Shown here one piece after another: positions 1,888-63,286 of a DNA stretch of 64,000 nucleotides; the stretch's first letter is position 1, and the number at the start of each line of letters is the position of its first letter. A program made the position numbers and the translations under genes. The notes under the pieces were generated by a model. That model did not search any database. It was not told the origin of the DNA and saw only the letters and a program-made list of their open reading frames with translations. This DNA comes from a virus (taxonomy: Duplodnaviria; Caudoviricetes), in IMG/VR virus record IMGVR_UViG_3300026549_000063, positions 1-64,000 of that record. The stretch is one strand, 5' to 3'.

Positions 1888-3465
1888 GTGAGTAAAAATC
1901 AGGATTCGTCTGTAATTCGCAAGGAGACTAAGCAGTCGATACCTATCGTTCAAAACTACTTGGTCTACCATGCTGAATTCGGTATCAACAACTTCACTGG
2001 AAAAACTCTGTATATGCTTCATGGCACCGGTGAGGTTAGCAAGATCCCATATTTGGGACAGTACACAGATGAATTCGGGCAGCGTCTGAATAACGCCGGA
2101 GTACAGATCCAGTTTATTCGGAAAGGGCGAAACGATCCTGATGAAAGTGGTAACACTCGAGGGGTCGCTGACAAGAAAGACCGGACGTTGGTTGATATCT
2201 TTATCAGTAATGATAAACTAGGCAAAGTAAACAGTAACGGAGAATACATCGATACCCCGTACTACGTTGCTGAATTTGGTTTTGTGATATCTTTCAACAG
2301 TAGCCTAGATGTACTGAGACGGGCACATCCAGGTTTACACAACTCAATATCCAACTACGTAGCGAGTGCACTGAGAAGAACACCGGAAGGTACTTCTGGA
2401 GCAGCACCGTTGTACGTAATAGCTAATAGCCACAATACGTCTATCAACCAGATATATCTAATCATCAATGATTCTATTTGTACGGCCAAAGTCGGTCATG
2501 ACTTCACTGCAAATGAATCACTTGATATTTATGTATCTAATGGATCAGGGGATATCTTAAAATACAGTATGCTTACGTCTACAGGATTTACCGATTTGGC
2601 AGAGCCTGTAGAAAATTCATTCTGTATTTGGGGGGTGAATAAAGATGCCGTATATAAACGGCTAATGAAAATACAAAACGATAGATCTAAACTTCTAACC
2701 GAATCTGAGGTTAATGACCGAATCGCTAAAGCACTAGAAGAAGCCAACGCTAAGATCACTCAATACGAAACAGAACTTAAGACCGAGCGGACACGCTACA
2801 GCTTACTTCAAAAAGAACACGATACCTACAAGACTCAGTTAGATGAAGTTAACGAAAATGCTAAGAAGACGTTCGAGCAGAATATGCTCGAACGTAAAGA
2901 AGCTATAGCCGCTAAAGAAGCAGAAACTAAACAAATACAGCTAGAAGCCGATGCCCGTATCCGCCAGGCAGAGGAGTCAGCCACTAGGAGCAAGCAAGAG
3001 CATGAGGAGCGTATGCGGAGGTACGATGAAGACGCTGCTAGGCTCAAAGCTGAAACTGAACGACTAAAAGCTGAGAACGACGAACGTTCAAGGCGATATG
3101 ACGAAGATCTCAGGCAGGCCAAACTGCGTGAGGAACGTGAACGACAGGAACACGAAGATCGAGTTCGTAGATACGAAGAAGATCTGCGTAAAGCTAAACT
3201 GAGGGAAGAAGAGGAAGAACGAAGGTACAAGGAACGCATGCGACAGGCGGAAGCCGAAGCAGCACGACAGAAGGCTGAAAGCGAAGAACGCTGTAGGCGA
3301 TACGAGGAAGAACTTCGACGGAAGAAGGTCGAAGAGGAACAGGAGAAACAGAAAAACTCTAACAGGAACAAATGGTGGGAATATATAGCAACAGCCGCTA
3401 AGGCATTAGGGGCAATCATTACTACTGCAGCATCAATCTTTACGCTTTTAGCTAAAACTGGATAA
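1888..3465 (+). CDS. Conserved jumbo-phage protein with long charged coiled-coil/SAH tail and hydrophobic C-terminus (positionally phiKZ gp122-like)
   Basis: 525 aa, GTG start after AGGAGG. E/R-rich RRY(D/E)EDLR repeats and C-terminal WWEYIATAAKALGAIITTAASIFTLL. Lies upstream of the nvRNAP subunit. Confidence 0.65.
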   Translation: MSKNQDSSVIRKETKQSIPIVQNYLVYHAEFGINNFTGKTLYMLHGTGEVSKIPYLGQYTDEFGQRLNNAGVQIQFIRKGRNDPDESGNTRGVADKKDRTLVDIFISNDKLGKVNSNGEYIDTPYYVAEFGFVISFNSSLDVLRRAHPGLHNSISNYVASALRRTPEGTSGAAPLYVIANSHNTSINQIYLIINDSICTAKVGHDFTANESLDIYVSNGSGDILKYSMLTSTGFTDLAEPVENSFCIWGVNKDAVYKRLMKIQNDRSKLLTESEVNDRIAKALEEANAKITQYETELKTERTRYSLLQKEHDTYKTQLDEVNENAKKTFEQNMLERKEAIAAKEAETKQIQLEADARIRQAEESATRSKQEHEERMRRYDEDAARLKAETERLKAENDERSRRYDEDLRQAKLREERERQEHEDRVRRYEEDLRKAKLREEEEERRYKERMRQAEAEAARQKAESEERCRRYEEELRRKKVEEEQEKQKNSNRNKWWEYIATAAKALGAIITTAASIFTLLAKTG

Positions 3466-3494
3466 TTGAGTAACGTTTATTTGGTAGGTAACTA

Positions 3495-3619
3495 GGAGAG
3501 TCTTTTCTTGGTCGGGGTAGCCACTTGACGAGGAAAGTACTCTCTGATGTAAGAAGAAGCAGCATGGGTAGCCACTGTGCTGAATATTCCGATATCAGGG
3601 TAGCCACTTGATAATGGGA
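3495..3619 (+). ncRNA. Three-hairpin structured RNA element (identical 11-nt loops) upstream of nvRNAP gene
   Basis: GGGTAGCCACT at 3515-3525, 3566-3576 and 3598-3608, each closed exactly by a stem of different sequence. Confidence 0.7.
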
Positions 3620-3695
3620 GTAGACTTACTCGTTATTTATTAAATAAACGATGTATAGAATATGAAGCTTAACTTAACTAATCCTAGGAGTTAGA

Positions 3696-5339
3696 ATGAG
3701 CTTAAAGGAAGTTATCGACGACATCGATCGCAAGCTGCCGCAGTTTAATGACAAACTGCTACTTGACTACAACAAGAACCTGATCAACGGGTGCCGTGAC
3801 TACGTGGATAAAGTCTTTGCCCACGCAGTTGAGTACATTAACGACACCCTTGAGGATGCACGACAGAACAACAGTATCAACTCATACGGCATGTCTATCG
3901 ACACGTTCGTTGAGCAGCCGACTACAGTTGTAACTTACAAGGGCTCTAGAGTTCTGGGGCCCGTCGAGCAGGTCAAGTATGAGACTAACAAAGGTCTTGG
4001 TAAGGAGAAGATAAGCATAGAGCGTGACGAACGAATGCTCGTAGAGTGTGCGTTCGAAATCAATGGCGAGCCGTATACCACTGAACTCTATCTTCCCTAC
4101 TGGATCAACAACGGACTCATCATGAATGGCAAAATCTATGCAGTCAAGCACGTTCTGTGCGACAAGATTGTAAGACTAGCTACTGGTGATGGGATCATCA
4201 TGAGGGTTATGAGATCTCCTCTCCATTTCTGGAGAAATGAGGAGATAGTACTTAAGGACATCCACGGTAAAGAAACTTCTGTAAAGTACATCACTTGTAA
4301 GGCACACTACAAGACAAATACGAAGAAGAAGTATCAGCGTACTCCTCTCGTTTTGTACATCCTGGCAACATACGGTCTTACTGAAGGTATCAACAAGTTT
4401 GTTCCAAGCGGTTGTGTAACCGTTTGTCAGACTGCTGATATGGACGACGAGGATCATCTCTACTTCCAAGCTATACCTGGCATTTATGTTAAGTGTGAAA
4501 CTGACGCATTTGCTAGTACTGTTTGTAAGAGAGTAGTGGCATCACTGGTATATATCTTTAGAATCGCTGCTAAGGATATTACCGGATATGGAGATAAAAA
4601 GTTCGATAGTCTCTCTAACAAAGACTTGTACATTGCATTGATAGGCAGGATCATCTACGGAGAGAAATACTCATTACCCCAAGCTTATGGGCACGGTGAG
4701 TCTCATCTTCGTTCACTGAACACCTATATCGATGCAGCGTCAAGTGCCGAGTTCAAACGAGATTACAACATCACTATCAGGAACATCTTTGAGTTATTCA
4801 TCTTTGTCTTCTTCAATATAGATACATATCTGGCTGGTTACAGTCCGAATGATCTGTTTGAGAAGAAACTTGGTAATGTGGATAAGTTGTTACGGGATTG
4901 TATTACTTCTAATCTGTTCAACAAAATCTACAGAGTGTCTAGAGGTAAGGAGCTTAAACCTAAGAACATAGCAGATGCGTTACGCATCAAGCCAACTAGT
5001 ATCAATGATATCTACAAGGACGAAAGTATAGCTACCGGTACTGAGGCCTACAACGATGACATGCTATTCAATCAGCTATGTCACAAATTACTCCAATCCA
5101 GATCAGCTAAAGGATCTAAGAAAGGAAACGATAGCAACACAATTAACCACAAGGAGCATCAGTTCTCACCTTCATTCGTAGCCATTGAAAGTATACTCTC
5201 GATAAGTACCTCCAATCCGGGAGTAGCTGGAGACATCAATCCATTCGCTCAGATAGATGAGGATGGATGTTTTGATGAATCCAAGATGCCTTGGTACGAT
5301 CAGATCAAGGGACTAAGCAATCTCCTTGTTCCGCTTTAG
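3696..5339 (+). CDS. Non-virion RNA polymerase beta-subunit N-terminal part (phiKZ gp123-like)
   Basis: 547 aa. Recalled resemblance to gp123 homologs (LYLPY, SPLHFWR, C-terminal PS-x-VAIES...INPFAQIDEDG). AGGAG RBS and compatible gene context. Confidence 0.7.
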   Translation: MSLKEVIDDIDRKLPQFNDKLLLDYNKNLINGCRDYVDKVFAHAVEYINDTLEDARQNNSINSYGMSIDTFVEQPTTVVTYKGSRVLGPVEQVKYETNKGLGKEKISIERDERMLVECAFEINGEPYTTELYLPYWINNGLIMNGKIYAVKHVLCDKIVRLATGDGIIMRVMRSPLHFWRNEEIVLKDIHGKETSVKYITCKAHYKTNTKKKYQRTPLVLYILATYGLTEGINKFVPSGCVTVCQTADMDDEDHLYFQAIPGIYVKCETDAFASTVCKRVVASLVYIFRIAAKDITGYGDKKFDSLSNKDLYIALIGRIIYGEKYSLPQAYGHGESHLRSLNTYIDAASSAEFKRDYNITIRNIFELFIFVFFNIDTYLAGYSPNDLFEKKLGNVDKLLRDCITSNLFNKIYRVSRGKELKPKNIADALRIKPTSINDIYKDESIATGTEAYNDDMLFNQLCHKLLQSRSAKGSKKGNDSNTINHKEHQFSPSFVAIESILSISTSNPGVAGDINPFAQIDEDGCFDESKMPWYDQIKGLSNLLVPL

Positions 5340-5360: not shown

Positions 5361-7472
5361 ATGCATATGGGATTTGTAACAGATACTAACCAGCAGTTTA
5401 ACTATGCCGGTAAGGCTCCGATACCGGAGCAGCCTCAGTCGGCACCTCAGCCGACGTACAATGGATTTCAACCTACCTATCAGCAGGCAGATCCGGTTAA
5501 CAGCAACATGACCAGAGTGGCTGGTATGGTCAGACCGCTCCTTCAGGCTTACATCGCTCAGGGACGTCTTAACCCGCAGGCAGCTAGCAAAATAGCTGAT
5601 TTACTTACCAGAGATGCTAACACCGTTTGGCCAGAGAATCTTGTCAGAACTTTTGGCAGACGGGTTTGCAGTGATCAGGAACTGAACAACTGGCTTAACA
5701 ACACGATCCAGTATTACAGCAACACGCTGGCTAATGCCGGAATGAATATTAGAGGCATTCCTCAGAACCAGGGATTTATGCCGCAGCCTCCTATGTATGG
5801 TAATAACATCCAGGGTGGCAGCATAGGCGTATTCGATCGGATGGGGTTCGGAGGTCAGCAGGGCTTCGCACCGCAGGCAGAGTATGCAGTTCAGGGTTTT
5901 GCACCTCAGCAGGGGTACGTTACTCAGGGATTCATTCCGCAGCAGGGTTACAACCAGATGAATACTGGCTATATAACTCAGGGATTTGCGCCTCAGCCTG
6001 GCTATGCTACTCAGGGATTTACTCCGCAGCAGTCAGCTCCAGCCAGGAACGCAAGCGCCGAGTTAGAAGCTGACATCAGACGTATGTATGGCGGTCAGGG
6101 ACAGCAGACTGCTTCTGAAACTCTTAGTCCGTTTCAGAGGCCTAGTGTAACTAACCCGACTTACAACAGCGAACCGCCAACAACTACCGCTACACCAATC
6201 AAGCCGGAGAACATCGCTCGGCCTCAGCCAGCACCGCAGCCTGCTCCTAGACCGGTTGCCCGGCCTGGCGACAGTTGGGTTCCTGCGCCTCCAGCTATCG
6301 ATTACAGCGAGAGTGACCAGTTAGCTAAGGATCTGTTTGGGGATAGCGGTACTGAACCAGCAGATGATTGGATAACTGTAGCTAGAGAACGTATCAACGA
6401 TAAGGTACGTCGTCTTATCGGCAGTATGACTATCCAGCATAAACCCGAAGACACTATGACTCCTCCTGCGGAATCCAAGGTCGTTACTGCAGATCTTGAG
6501 ATCGATGTTCCAGTTGAGTCTATCGCTCAGGCAGTTGCAGACATAACAGCTAACCACAAGGAGGCAACGAAGACCGATTCAGTCTACAACATCAAGGCTA
6601 AGATGGAGCACATCATCCGTCTTCCGTTCGAGACAGCCAAGAATGAGTACACTGCCATTCAGAGGCTTATCGATAGTGAGGTAGATGATGCCAGCAAGAC
6701 CGGTATCCAGGGTTTCAAGGATGTCATGAAGATAGGTATGGATGTGCTGCGTAAGATAACTTACTCTACCAACACGTTCTATGAAGGTATCTCAAGTCTG
6801 GTTCTCGATCTGTTCAATCATCAGTTCGTAATCAGTCTTGGCGGCATGACTGTAGAAGGGTATACATCACCTGCTCCTGTCAAGAACATCTCTGAGATGG
6901 AATGGGCACTTAACATGGAAAGCGATTTCCTTAAAGAACTCAAGGCCAAGGATGAGTATAAGTATTGCAAAGCTATGTATACCAGCCTTATGTCATCTAT
7001 CTTCTCCATCTGGTCACTGAAGGTTAAAGGATATAAGGGTTATCTTGATCCTGCTAACCAGGCTGATGCTCAGCTGATAGTAGTTAACAGCACTAACGGC
7101 CTGTCAGTAGATGGAGCACCCATCAGACTGCTTGGTACTGTCAACGTAGCTAATGAAGAACTTAAGAAGAAAGTAGATGCAGCTGTCAGAAGCATCTTCG
7201 TTCTGACTTATAATACCACTATCGTCATTTCCAACCTGAAACTTGAGACTAAGCCTAAGGTTAATGGAACTAATGATTTCGGTATCAAACTGATGGATAG
7301 GCATTCGTCTTATGCTGCACCGCTGGCTATGACTGTAAGTCGTCACGGTTATGCTAACGTAGTTATCAGGGAGGATAATAGTACGATAGATACGCCTTAC
7401 ATAGGCGGTCTGGATACAGACGGTGTATTCGTCATGAGAAAGATGCAGAGATGCACTCGTCAGAATAAGTAG
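5361..7472 (+). CDS. Hypothetical protein with Q/P/G-rich low-complexity N-terminal half
   Basis: 703-aa ORF with six QGF-x-PQ repeats; follows the nvRNAP gene on the same strand. Confidence 0.7.
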   Translation: MHMGFVTDTNQQFNYAGKAPIPEQPQSAPQPTYNGFQPTYQQADPVNSNMTRVAGMVRPLLQAYIAQGRLNPQAASKIADLLTRDANTVWPENLVRTFGRRVCSDQELNNWLNNTIQYYSNTLANAGMNIRGIPQNQGFMPQPPMYGNNIQGGSIGVFDRMGFGGQQGFAPQAEYAVQGFAPQQGYVTQGFIPQQGYNQMNTGYITQGFAPQPGYATQGFTPQQSAPARNASAELEADIRRMYGGQGQQTASETLSPFQRPSVTNPTYNSEPPTTTATPIKPENIARPQPAPQPAPRPVARPGDSWVPAPPAIDYSESDQLAKDLFGDSGTEPADDWITVARERINDKVRRLIGSMTIQHKPEDTMTPPAESKVVTADLEIDVPVESIAQAVADITANHKEATKTDSVYNIKAKMEHIIRLPFETAKNEYTAIQRLIDSEVDDASKTGIQGFKDVMKIGMDVLRKITYSTNTFYEGISSLVLDLFNHQFVISLGGMTVEGYTSPAPVKNISEMEWALNMESDFLKELKAKDEYKYCKAMYTSLMSSIFSIWSLKVKGYKGYLDPANQADAQLIVVNSTNGLSVDGAPIRLLGTVNVANEELKKKVDAAVRSIFVLTYNTTIVISNLKLETKPKVNGTNDFGIKLMDRHSSYAAPLAMTVSRHGYANVVIREDNSTIDTPYIGGLDTDGVFVMRKMQRCTRQNK
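5768..6032 (+). repeat. Coding tandem repeats QGF(M/A/I/T)PQ-x-GY
   Basis: Six imperfect copies seen in the translation and in the DNA (caggg(a/c/t)tt). Confidence 0.8.
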
Positions 7473-12172: not shown

Positions 12173-12631
12173 ATGACTATGTATTTCAGAAACCCCCTTA
12201 TGCAGCGCATAAGCGCAGATAGCGAAGACCTTACCTGGAAAGCTGTACAAAGACTTAAGGATAAATCAGCTGTTGATAAACTGGAACGTGAATATCATTT
12301 TGCGCTTCCTGAAAGCCTTAAAGCTTGTATCCTGAAGTACAATGGCGGTATATGCAAGCCTAACAAGATAGATGCTCCTTCTGGTAACGTCTATCTATTT
12401 GGCGGGTTACTGTCTTTTAATGAAAATGACGCAGACAATGTATATACTGCTATCCAGTCTATACTGGACGTAAGCGGGAGCAGACTTAATTACTTTCCGT
12501 TCGGTCTAGATCCCTTCGGCAACTTCTTCTGTATTCAAGATGATGGAGTAATCTTCTTCAATCATGAAACTAACGGTATCGAAGTATTAACTAAATCCTT
12601 CGATGATTTCTTAGCTTCTTTACACGCGTAG
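12173..12631 (+). CDS. SMI1/KNR4 (SUKH) family protein
   Basis: LEREYHFALPESLKACILKYNGG ... FPFGLDPFGNFFC ... VIFFNHET ... LTKSFDDFLASL, the typical SUKH pattern. Confidence 0.85.
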   Translation: MTMYFRNPLMQRISADSEDLTWKAVQRLKDKSAVDKLEREYHFALPESLKACILKYNGGICKPNKIDAPSGNVYLFGGLLSFNENDADNVYTAIQSILDVSGSRLNYFPFGLDPFGNFFCIQDDGVIFFNHETNGIEVLTKSFDDFLASLHA

Positions 12632-14923: not shown

Positions 14924-14938
14924 CCGTAGGAGAAAACT

Positions 14939-15166
14939 ATGAGTATGTTTGGTAGTAGCTTTAATGAATTTACCGGACACAATGACCAGGAGCATGTTGA
15001 GATGCATCCGGAAGATGAGCTCTATGGTTCACGTTCGAAGCCTCACCATAAGAAAGACGAGGATAGTTTGCTGCCAGATCTGGACCTGATTTTTAACACC
15101 ACTCCTGAGCAGCTTAGAGAGATGGCACGTGCTAATCTTCGTAAGCTTCGCGGCATGGACGACTAA
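14939..15166 (+). CDS. Small hypothetical protein
   Basis: 75 aa, AGGAG RBS; terminator AACCAGCCTGC-taac-GCAGGCTGGTT follows. Confidence 0.7.
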   Translation: MSMFGSSFNEFTGHNDQEHVEMHPEDELYGSRSKPHHKKDEDSLLPDLDLIFNTTPEQLREMARANLRKLRGMDD

Positions 15167-15281
15167 AATAAGTTTTAGTTAACTTAAGAACAACCAGCCT
15201 GCTAACGCAGGCTGGTTTATTTTTTGTCATTTTACTGCAAAGAAATGGTATAGATATTTTAAGACTATAAGGAGTATAATT

Positions 15282-50850: not shown

Positions 50851-50906
50851 GATACATGTTTATTTTAGTTATATCTTATATGAATTCACAAAGGAGATAT
50901 GAGCAA

Positions 50907-51437
50907 ATGATTAACGTAGCTGGTATAGTTCACAACGATTTAGCTAATGGCCCTGGAATAAGATGTACTGTTTTTGTTCAGGGCTGCAGACATCATTGCA
51001 AAGGCTGTCATAACCCAGAAACGTGGAAACGTGGTGTTGGAAAAGATATGACTGCTGACGATATCTTTCAGGAAATAACCAACAATAAACTTGATACTGG
51101 AGTAACTATCTCTGGTGGCGAACCAGTAGATCAGTATAAAGAACTTCTTCCATTGATAGAGAAACTAAAGCGTGTTAACTACGGCTTAATGCTCTATACC
51201 GGTTATACTGCAGAAGAGTTGGAGCAATTTGCTAATCGTTCTATTGACTTTGTAAATTTTTTACGCCCATTCGAATATATCGTCTGTGACCCGTTTATTC
51301 TGAAAGAACGTGATCTAACCTTGAAGTTCAGAGGCAGTCGTAATCAAAGAATCGTAACGACTGAGTATCTGGGCAACACTGCACCTTATCTTAGATTCAT
51401 CAACATAACTCAGAAATTTGACGAAGAACAAGGCTAA
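50907..51437 (+). CDS. nrdG: Anaerobic ribonucleotide reductase activase (radical SAM)
   Basis: NGPGIRCTVFVQGCRHHCKGCHNPETW (CxxxCxxC), ISGGEP, FRGSRNQRI. Confidence 0.93.
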   Translation: MINVAGIVHNDLANGPGIRCTVFVQGCRHHCKGCHNPETWKRGVGKDMTADDIFQEITNNKLDTGVTISGGEPVDQYKELLPLIEKLKRVNYGLMLYTGYTAEELEQFANRSIDFVNFLRPFEYIVCDPFILKERDLTLKFRGSRNQRIVTTEYLGNTAPYLRFINITQKFDEEQG

Positions 51438-55045: not shown

Positions 55046-55125
55046 TATCTATGCGGTTATAGATTCTATTTCTATAACCGCATATTCCCACTAACCTATT
55101 AACCTCCTGGAGGATTTTGCTACCT

Positions 55126-55290
55126 ATGACCAAAGATACACTTATTGGAACCGGAGTTAATTTCACTCACATCGCTCGTATCACTGGATATCTTGCACGT
55201 ATCGATCGTTTCAACAGCGCCAAGCTGTGTGAAGTCAAAGAGCGTGTTAAGCATAGTCTCAGTGCTCCGCAGGTTGCTAAAGCTGCTTAA
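55126..55290 (+). CDS. Stand-alone NrdD glycyl-radical loop peptide (54 aa), not in the ORF track
   Basis: MTKDTLIGTGVNFTHIARITGYLARIDRFNSAKLCEVKERVKHS...; RITGYL glycyl motif; GGAGG RBS at 55109-55113. Confidence 0.85.
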   Translation: MTKDTLIGTGVNFTHIARITGYLARIDRFNSAKLCEVKERVKHSLSAPQVAKAA

Positions 55291-55448
55291 TTAACTAAGG
55301 TTTTTTATCAAGGTCAATAGTCAGGAGGTTTTCATACCTCCTGACTTACTAACTATATATAGTGTGAAATGCCAATATTTTATGACTGCATCTAAGCCAG
55401 TACTGATATATTGGCTAGATATCAAAACTAATCTTCGAGGATTTTCAA

Positions 55449-62975: not shown

Positions 62976-63095
62976 GGGAACAGTCGAGCAGCTTAAGCTT
63001 AAGAAGCGGTGGGGTAAAACCTGCTGCTTCTTTTTTTATTATATTCATTAGTTTTTTATCTATATATCACTTAACTGAATACAAAGGAGGTAGTC

Positions 63096-63188
63096 ATGAT
63101 AATACTCTGGTATCTTTTCCAATTTATTATTGGAGTGGCGTTTTGGATTTACGTCATTCACTATATCTTCCATGGTGATGATGACTGA
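63096..63188 (+). CDS. 30-aa single-pass membrane peptide, not in the ORF track
   Basis: MIILWYLFQFIIGVAFWIYVIHYIFHGDDD; promoter TATATATCAC at 63061 and AAAGGAGG RBS. Confidence 0.65.
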   Translation: MIILWYLFQFIIGVAFWIYVIHYIFHGDDD

Positions 63189-63286
63189 AGATCAACTAGA
63201 ATCTTCCAGACGATTGGAAGTAGAATCTAACTTATGTGAGTTAGAGGAGTAAGGCTATTGCCTTACTCCTCTATTTATTTTTTTTG

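Follow-up and report, generated by a model that had tools for sequence, protein, structure and literature searches.

What is one short sequence doing in three exact copies, each on a stem of its own, in the gap before the gene of an RNA polymerase subunit? The array that raises this question belongs to an uncultured giant phage, and the window, i.e. the whole stretch of DNA analyzed (64,000 nt), is the first 64 kb of the 85.6-kb IMG/VR virus record G000, which is estimated to hold about 30% of a genome. The first-pass annotation of this DNA had reported three identical copies of an 11-mer at 3515, 3566 and 3598, and GGGTAGCCACT was indeed found in three exact copies on the + strand at precisely these positions, each on its own stem. 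The annotation had seen no other copy in the window; this is true, and a whole-record scan extends it to the full 85.6 kb, where no copy beyond these three was found. With up to one mismatch allowed, 0.57 matches to GGGTAGCCACT would be expected per window, and the array is the sole case in the record of an intergenic 9-mer that is locally repeated three times.

The 11-mer had been described as an 11-nt loop on three different stems. The stems are separate as claimed, but the loop is shorter: in each hairpin only the 7-mer GUAGCCA is unpaired, and the GG before it and the CU after it pair with each other, closing the loop by G-C and, one step further out, G-U. A relative of this phage (locus L005 of the 85-kb IMG/VR record G001, syntenic with our record at 65-80% nucleotide identity) confirms the 7-nt loop directly, with GA..UC and AG..CU at the closing-pair positions. 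Similarly, the extent first given to the array (3495-3619) correctly took in the three hairpins, but overlooked a 19-bp outer stem (3474-3492 paired with 3632-3650). The whole module, with this closing stem around the three hairpins, measures about 177 nt (3474-3650) and is predicted to consist of the following parts:

3474 to 3492, + strand: 5' strand of the outer helix P1, beginning 9 nt past the stop codon of the upstream gene (2 nt in the relative); 19 bp, 4 of them G-U, pairing probability ~1.0
3495 to 3545, + strand: hairpin A, 20 bp arranged as 7+7+6, with the loop GUAGCCA at 3517-3523
3546 to 3553, + strand: 5' strand of an auxiliary helix, pairing with 3625-3631; predicted only, and arranged differently in the relative
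3560 to 3582, + strand: hairpin B, 8 bp, 2 of them G-U, with the loop GUAGCCA at 3568-3574
3585 to 3622, + strand: hairpin C, 6+2+6 bp, with the loop GUAGCCA at 3600-3606
3625 to 3631, + strand: 3' strand of the auxiliary helix, pairing with 3546-3553; predicted only
3632 to 3650, + strand: 3' strand of the outer helix P1, including GTTATTTATTA, which is present in the relative too

The structure had been proposed to act as RNA or as hairpins in single-stranded DNA, and the strand on which the region folds best fits the former. RNAfold gave -74.9 kcal/mol (z -4.6) for the intergenic region as + strand RNA vs. -42.4 kcal/mol (z -1.3) for the - strand, a strand difference of 32 kcal/mol that is the largest among the intergenic regions of this phage. 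DNA parameters again favored the + strand (-24.1 kcal/mol, z -3.8, vs. -16.6 kcal/mol). Of the 68 pairs predicted for the window's element, 13 are G-U, so that good folding is confined to the + strand, an indication of RNA. Taken by itself, the z-score does not stand out: values of z -4 to -7 are common among the intergenic regions of this phage, most of these regions being symmetric palindromes of the terminator type. Three long intergenic regions (311-403 nt), at 14924-15281, 55046-55448 and 62976-63286, have very strong predicted structure on both strands; that at 55046-55448 folds at -123 kcal/mol (z -6.6). In a folding context of 500 nt, the loops were predicted to be unpaired (p >= 0.84) in five of the six hairpins of the two phages; the sixth, hairpin B of the relative, is weak and the exposure of its loop ambiguous.

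Several other readings of the region itself were rejected. Mini-ORFs running through the motif (TTG 3508...TGA; ATG 3563...TGA 3608-3610) are not conserved in the relative, where no start codon follows GGAG and, at hairpin B, ATG is directly followed by TAG. An ORF of 51 aa on the minus strand (3452-3607), which overlaps the hairpins, was judged to be spurious. A replication origin was discarded, there being no skew feature at 3.5 kb.

To what extent is the element conserved? The comparison rests on two independent lineages, each known from an 85-kb fragment of about 30% of a genome; another IMG/VR record (L004/L012), with a 100% identical beta gene and the same three copies, adds nothing independent. 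The RNAP beta-type protein encoded downstream of the element is 69% identical in the two phages, and further beta-protein relatives at 66-69% identity were seen in a protein search, in the protein clusters P0003 (41 members, >100 contigs) and P0004. The relative has its three copies of the motif in the same place (GAGTAGCCATC, AGGTAGCCACT and GGGTAGCCACT), and its region is predicted to fold into a 9+11-bp outer helix around three GUAGCCA hairpins (z -4.05). The BLAST alignment of the two phages fails over most of the element and picks up again only at hairpin C, and the stems are thus without recognizable sequence similarity, though still paired. In hairpin C, the top 8 bp are orthologous in the two phages and include one double change, from C-G to U-A. 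Elsewhere, the two records share a cluster of tRNA genes, 12 of them at 65712-68476 of G000 (beyond the window), whose identity to the syntenic genes of G001 is 89-100%, far above the genome average; the tRNA sets differ slightly, with Leu-CAG and Asn in one phage and Gln-CTG and Leu-CAA in the other.

We aligned the six hairpins, three from each phage, on their loops and scored the 8 flanking stem pairs. The seven loop columns are invariant in all six hairpins. The stem positions were paired in 83% of cases vs. 61% in shuffles, with 14 double-sided changes, and none of 500 shuffles reached the observed covariation score; a control with slid partner columns gave 31-48% pairing. At the closing pair, five hairpins have G-C and one has A-U; at the second pair, four have G-U, one has A-U and one has G-C. 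The outer helix, 19 and 20 bp long in the two phages (pairing probability 0.98-1.0), was compared with its inner C-G pair as the anchor: among the ten pairs of the inner half, the only differences are four changes from G-U to A-U, and seven of the outer nine pairs are changed on both sides with pairing retained. Selection covers three things, namely the outer helix, the three hairpins and the identity of the 7-nt loop. Simple duplication of a block can be rejected, as the flanks differ and covary, and the original suggestion of selection on a displayed loop withstood the covariance check in a relative that had been proposed along with it, with the loop kept and the stems covarying across six hairpins of two phages.

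A covariance model of the hairpin, run on the two genomes (170 kb) and on three loci of more distant kin, recovered only the six known copies, and GTAGCCA is absent upstream of the beta gene in the more distant relatives L137, L138 and L139 (33-34% protein identity). The matches in a single metagenome scan came from only the two known lineages.

The genes, promoters and terminators around the element are these:

1780 to 1810, + strand: canonical intrinsic terminator (13-bp stem and T-run) ending the preceding transcription unit
1833 to 1842, + strand: early-type promoter motif TATATATTAC before the upstream gene; the motif also follows T-runs at about ten other genes
1888 to 3465, + strand: upstream gene, 525 aa, no family match
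3654 to 3667, + strand: TATAGAATATGAAG, candidate second-class (middle/late-type) promoter containing TATAGA, identical in the relative
3669 to 3694, + strand: conserved 5'-UTR hairpin enclosing the AGGAG ribosome-binding site of the beta gene
3696 to 5339, + strand: RNAP beta-type subunit gene, 547 aa (phrog_2943 "polymerase", E 1e-51)

The upstream protein has an N-terminal domain without match, a long E/K/R-rich coiled coil and a C-terminal hydrophobic anchor; no match to it was found in PHROGs, Pfam or the ESM Atlas. The downstream gene, first annotated as a non-virion RNAP gene, does encode an RNAP subunit of the beta type found in jumbo phages; among solved structures its only relative is the beta chain of the AR9 non-virion RNAP (7S00_c, E 2e-6), and it is less than 25% identical to the protein of any cultured phage. 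Directly beyond it, an ORF of 703 aa (5361-7472) has no family or structure match. It contains three repeats of ACTCAGGGATTT-type 9-12-mers at 5769-6020; over this stretch BLASTN detected no nucleotide similarity in the relative, whose ORF at the corresponding position encodes 681 aa. Phage-encoded proteins elsewhere in the window include a SUKH-1/SMI1-KNR4 immunity-type protein (12173-12631, E 9e-16) and a radical-SAM Fer4_12 activase-like protein (50856-51437, E 3e-34); the gene for the latter would fit an anaerobic host.

Two classes of promoter motif are visible in the record, TATATAT(T/C)A(C/T) and TATAGA. The former usually lies directly after a T-run terminator and is followed by a 5' hairpin. 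This class of motif resembles the early promoters of phiKZ as described, in which a T-rich stretch precedes an AT-rich consensus (PMC8244752). About ten early-type cassettes, made up of a T-run terminator, TATATAT(T/C)A(C/T)T(A)AAG, a variable 5' hairpin 10-45 nt downstream and small genes without assignment, lie at 1833, 7562, 13876, ~14450, 49600, 49880, 58600 and 60690, and at ~77620 and 80430 of G000. The TATAGA class is found 30-52 nt upstream of at least six start codons of the record (at least five besides that of the beta gene), with sites at 3654, 12138, ~15250, ~41165 (- strand) and ~51450, and at ~77650 of G000. TATAGA is a candidate promoter class, possibly that of the non-virion RNAP of this lineage.

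Both phages share the gene order early promoter, 525-aa gene, element, TATAGA and beta gene, and much of the 5' UTR of the beta gene is identical, including the hairpin around its ribosome-binding site. No intrinsic terminator was found on the + strand between 3465 and 3696, in agreement with the first-pass annotation, which had seen none between the array and the upstream gene. The element ends 3 nt before the TATAGA motif (3-4 nt over both phages), no terminator parts it from the upstream gene, and it would thus be part of an early read-through transcript. Because TATAGA lies between the array and the gene, the array would be missing from mRNA begun at this motif and be carried only by transcripts that read through from the early promoter, some 1.8 kb upstream. 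In phage 201phi2-1, the nvRNAP beta genes are preceded by middle or late promoters, and their first, basal expression has been proposed to come by read-through from an early promoter that lies kilobases further upstream (PMC11512511). By analogy, the element would lie on a read-through path like that proposed for 201phi2-1.

We also looked for the motif elsewhere, by scanning IMG/VR viral contigs and 185,579 bacterial and archaeal genomes for two or three copies. Beyond the phage itself, its near-identical copy and the relative, the matches listed comprised tandem repeats (many of them probably coding), a phage (L006) in which the 11-mer is one half of an inverted repeat, and small phages (L007-L015) in which it sits inside a dispersed 17-nt motif, GGGGTAGCCACTTTTKG. 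In the early/replication region, arrays of two to four copies of the latter, together with GGGTAGCCGTT variants, are flanked by a terminator on one side and a sigma-70-like promoter on the other; an example is L009 9640-9860 (- strand), and others are in L007, L008, L010, L011 and L013-L015. One of the small phages with GGGGTAGCCACTTTTKG is complete (36 kb, with terminal repeats). GGGGTAGCCACTTTTKG could also fold into a weak hairpin, rich in G-U pairs, that has the 7-nt loop seen here. No protein common to the small phages and this phage was found in the DNA compared, and a search of the small phages for a T7-type RNAP, run without a positive control, found none.

Varied, compensated stems under the motif were seen, among the matches listed, only in the window's phage and its relative. 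The occurrence of the 11-mer both here and in the small phages is probably a coincidence; given that a control scan with the reversed motif gave 0 matches, the small phages may owe it to a common cause, in the form of a shared recognition code. Several unrelated viral contigs (L163-L165, L169) surfaced solely through containing GGTAGCCACT; their tandem units of 15 nt, GGT(A/C)GCCACTGTTT(N), form long arrays.

Our preferred reading, which we advance with moderate confidence, is that the element would act as a plus-strand, trivalent loop-display RNA, presenting on an early transcript three equal docking sites for a partner acting in trans, most likely a protein. An invariant loop on freely changing stems suggests a site that is read by such a partner, and three equivalent copies suggest multivalent binding; a protein is favored because no conserved complementary RNA was found. 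The course of events that we infer, from transcription of the element through recognition by a protein and processing at the stalk to a regulatory outcome, would run as follows. A transcript started at the early promoter near 1833 would cross the 525-aa gene toward the RNAP beta gene, with the element as its tail, and the three GUAGCCA loops would offer equivalent docking sites to a phage or host protein that reads the loop. The closing stem could insulate the module, or act as a double-strand-specific processing stalk of the RNase III type. In the latter case, cleavage would free a stable, trivalent small RNA of about 140-180 nt and part the early message from the beta message, whose 5' end after the cut would be close to that later made from TATAGA. 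Binding of the partner would set the fate (stability, processing or translation) of the first beta-subunit mRNA; as an alternative outcome, the freed RNA may titrate its partner. Neither an RNA-binding domain nor an RNase III turned up among the scanned proteins or across the two 85-kb fragments, each of which holds about 30% of a genome.

A version of this last outcome, in which the module cut out at the closing stem would be a stable trivalent decoy that titrates a host RNA-binding factor or the phage's own polymerase in the early-to-middle switch, strikes us as unlikely; it would make the element a phage counterpart of the CsrB- or 6S-type sponge RNAs with a new loop code. The first-pass annotation had also offered a signal for mRNA sorting or export. 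As a general signal this is unlikely, since the element occupies a single locus in 170 kb of two genomes. The broader idea of a loop-display RNA is supported as to its kind but not as to its function.

The loops might instead pair with an RNA, each 7-nt loop making a U-turn and kissing a complementary loop (UGGCUAC or part of it) in a tRNA, sRNA or mRNA. Contacts of this kind have precedents in ColE1 RNA I/RNA II and in T-box/tRNA recognition, and 7-nt loops with U at position 2 do resemble loops of the anticodon type: the U-A-G step could form a U-turn, the loops are predicted to be single-stranded, and the triplets AGC, GCC and UAG within them could, as read from the sequence, pair with anticodons. 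The complement is where this reading falters. TGGCTAC is present 3 times in one 85-kb fragment and 8 times in the other, without synteny between the sites, so that no complementary target encoded by the phages is conserved between the two; GTGGCTAC is absent from the window's record, and none of the 12 phage tRNAs carries the complement, in a search that covered about 30% of each genome. Kissing between the loops themselves was rejected, as GUAGCCA is not self-complementary. We therefore regard a pairing role as quite unlikely, and reach a similarly skeptical view of a mark for processing or stability alone, in which the long stem would be a site for a double-strand RNase or a block to 3' exonucleases and the loop would have no partner. 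The early mRNA of T7 and the rplL-rpoB spacer of E. coli are processed by such cleavage, host RNase III enzymes are near-universal, and the 19-20-bp terminal helix lies exactly between two cistrons; moreover, the distant relative L138 has a different, strongly structured region (z -3.9) at the same junction. The available fragments yielded no phage RNase III, however, and a cutting site needs no set of three hairpins whose 7-nt loop stays invariant through complete turnover of the stems.

These compensated stems also weigh against a signal at the DNA level, i.e. GGGTAGCCACT repeats serving as transcription-factor sites for the TATAGA promoter, or + strand hairpins in single-stranded DNA serving replication or priming. 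The spacing of the copies is compatible with such a signal, as they lie 56, 88 and 139 nt upstream of TATAGA in the window and 58, 113 and 154 nt upstream in the relative, the nearest distance being conserved, and so is the + strand fold with DNA parameters (z -3.8). In the small unrelated phages, too, a 17-nt motif that includes the 11-mer stands in arrays, with a terminator on one side and a sigma-70-like promoter on the other, and the reversed motif gave no match in the control scan; these phages and the one studied here, however, have no common protein in the DNA compared. Sites in double-stranded DNA need no flanking inverted repeats, yet all six copies have them, with compensatory changes, and double-stranded DNA could not form the long-range 19-bp helix. 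On the other strand, A-C mismatches would take the place of the 13 G-U pairs, disfavoring a cruciform, and a DNA-level role accordingly appears rather improbable to us. Very unlikely, finally, is a role in termination or attenuation of an unconventional type, by which the element would restrict how much early transcription reads through into the beta gene. Its place is the one that a terminator occupies in other early units of this phage, and in 201phi2-1, ARNold did not class 80 of 132 mapped termination sites as factor-independent, and many terminators carry sequence motifs. A terminator in the usual sense is a GC-rich hairpin followed by a U-tract, however, and no U-tract follows any of the hairpins, which run into GAUGUAAG, AAUAUUCC and GACUUACU, or the outer stem. 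Elsewhere this phage uses canonical terminators of hairpin and T-run, and a general termination motif would recur in the genome, which the GUAGCCA array does not.

What would follow if the element is a trivalent loop-display RNA? The timing of the first synthesis of the second RNAP in phiKZ-like giant phages is poorly understood, and the element sits on the proposed read-through path to the beta gene in two phage lineages. It carries the plainest signature that sequence by itself can show of an RNA motif: an invariant displayed loop, stems that have turned over fully with compensation, and a strand-specific fold. Were its partner found, post-transcriptional control in these phages would become accessible to study, and the element would also provide a compact natural hairpin tag. 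Since the element is so far known from two uncultured lineages and its function is only inferred, we consider its present weight to be moderate.

How does the element compare with systems already known? The annotation had not recognized it as a described family, and the Rfam search that it suggested as a check agrees with this: Rfam 15, run on both strands of 3000-4200 of the window and 2650-3100 of L005 with E up to 10, returned only snoRNA and lncRNA noise in both phages (12-20 bits vs. cut-offs of 44-50), and ARAGORN found no tRNA or tmRNA in the window. A known RNA family or tRNA was rejected on these grounds. The GUAGCCA array is an undescribed RNA motif of a general kind that is already known. 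It differs from a CRISPR repeat or an RNA anti-CRISPR, in which the whole unit is identical, as what its hairpins share is the 7-nt loop and, in part, the two closing pairs, on stems that differ. A terminal helix is present as in the ncRNA of retrons, but the flanking proteins have no reverse-transcriptase match in Pfam or PHROGs.

Phages with RNA polymerases of their own offer a second point of comparison. The hairpin promoters of N4-like phages are also three hairpins with conserved loop features at one locus; these have stems of 5-7 bp and 3-nt loops and lie on the template DNA strand, whereas the element has 7-nt loops on stems of 8-20 bp, folds better on the coding-sense strand, i.e. the non-template strand for the flanking genes, and is enclosed by a long-range helix. 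Like boxB in the nut sites of lambda or the put sites of HK022, which act in the nascent transcript on the polymerase complex, it would be a phage hairpin structure concerned with downstream genes. A boxB is a single hairpin with a GNRA-like pentaloop beside boxA, and put consists of two specific stem-loops; both act before terminators, whereas no terminator is predicted between the element and the beta gene. The small RNAs of phiKZ-like phages (201phi2-1 sRNA005 and the phiKZ sRNA upstream of gp182) are conserved, structured and next to conserved genes (PMC11512511). They are derived from 5' UTRs, upstream of a tail gene, are not described as arrays of repeated loops and have no sequence relation to the element.

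In its position, the element recalls the rplL-rpoB spacer of E. coli, which is likewise structured, directly upstream of an RNAP beta gene and within read-through from upstream genes. Its outer helix is similar to the processing stalks of rRNA, long helices formed from distant flanks of the kind that RNase III cuts: it spans about two turns of double-stranded RNA drawn from the flanks, with 19 bp in the window and 9+11 bp in the relative, cleavage itself being putative. Neither the spacer nor the stalks have repeated identical loops, and the E. coli spacer has a true attenuator with a U-tract.

The display of one loop on several hairpins finds its parallels among RNAs that are read by proteins. 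The sponge RNAs CsrB, RsmZ and RsmY likewise consist of several hairpins repeating one loop motif, as the element does with three per phage, and titrate a protein. Their defining motif is GGA (A(N)GGA), which is absent here, where all six loops are GUAGCCA and have no Rfam match even at E up to 10; nor is the element, unlike these RNAs, an independent gene with a visible promoter and terminator of its own. The other parallel is eukaryotic, the iron-responsive elements in the 3' UTR of the transferrin-receptor mRNA, which occur in five copies with a bulged C and a 6-nt CAGUGN loop. That array has no enclosing stem and no sequence relation to ours, and the likeness describes only a possible mode of working: the same loop on different stems in a UTR, read by a loop-specific protein whose multivalent binding decides the fate of the mRNA.
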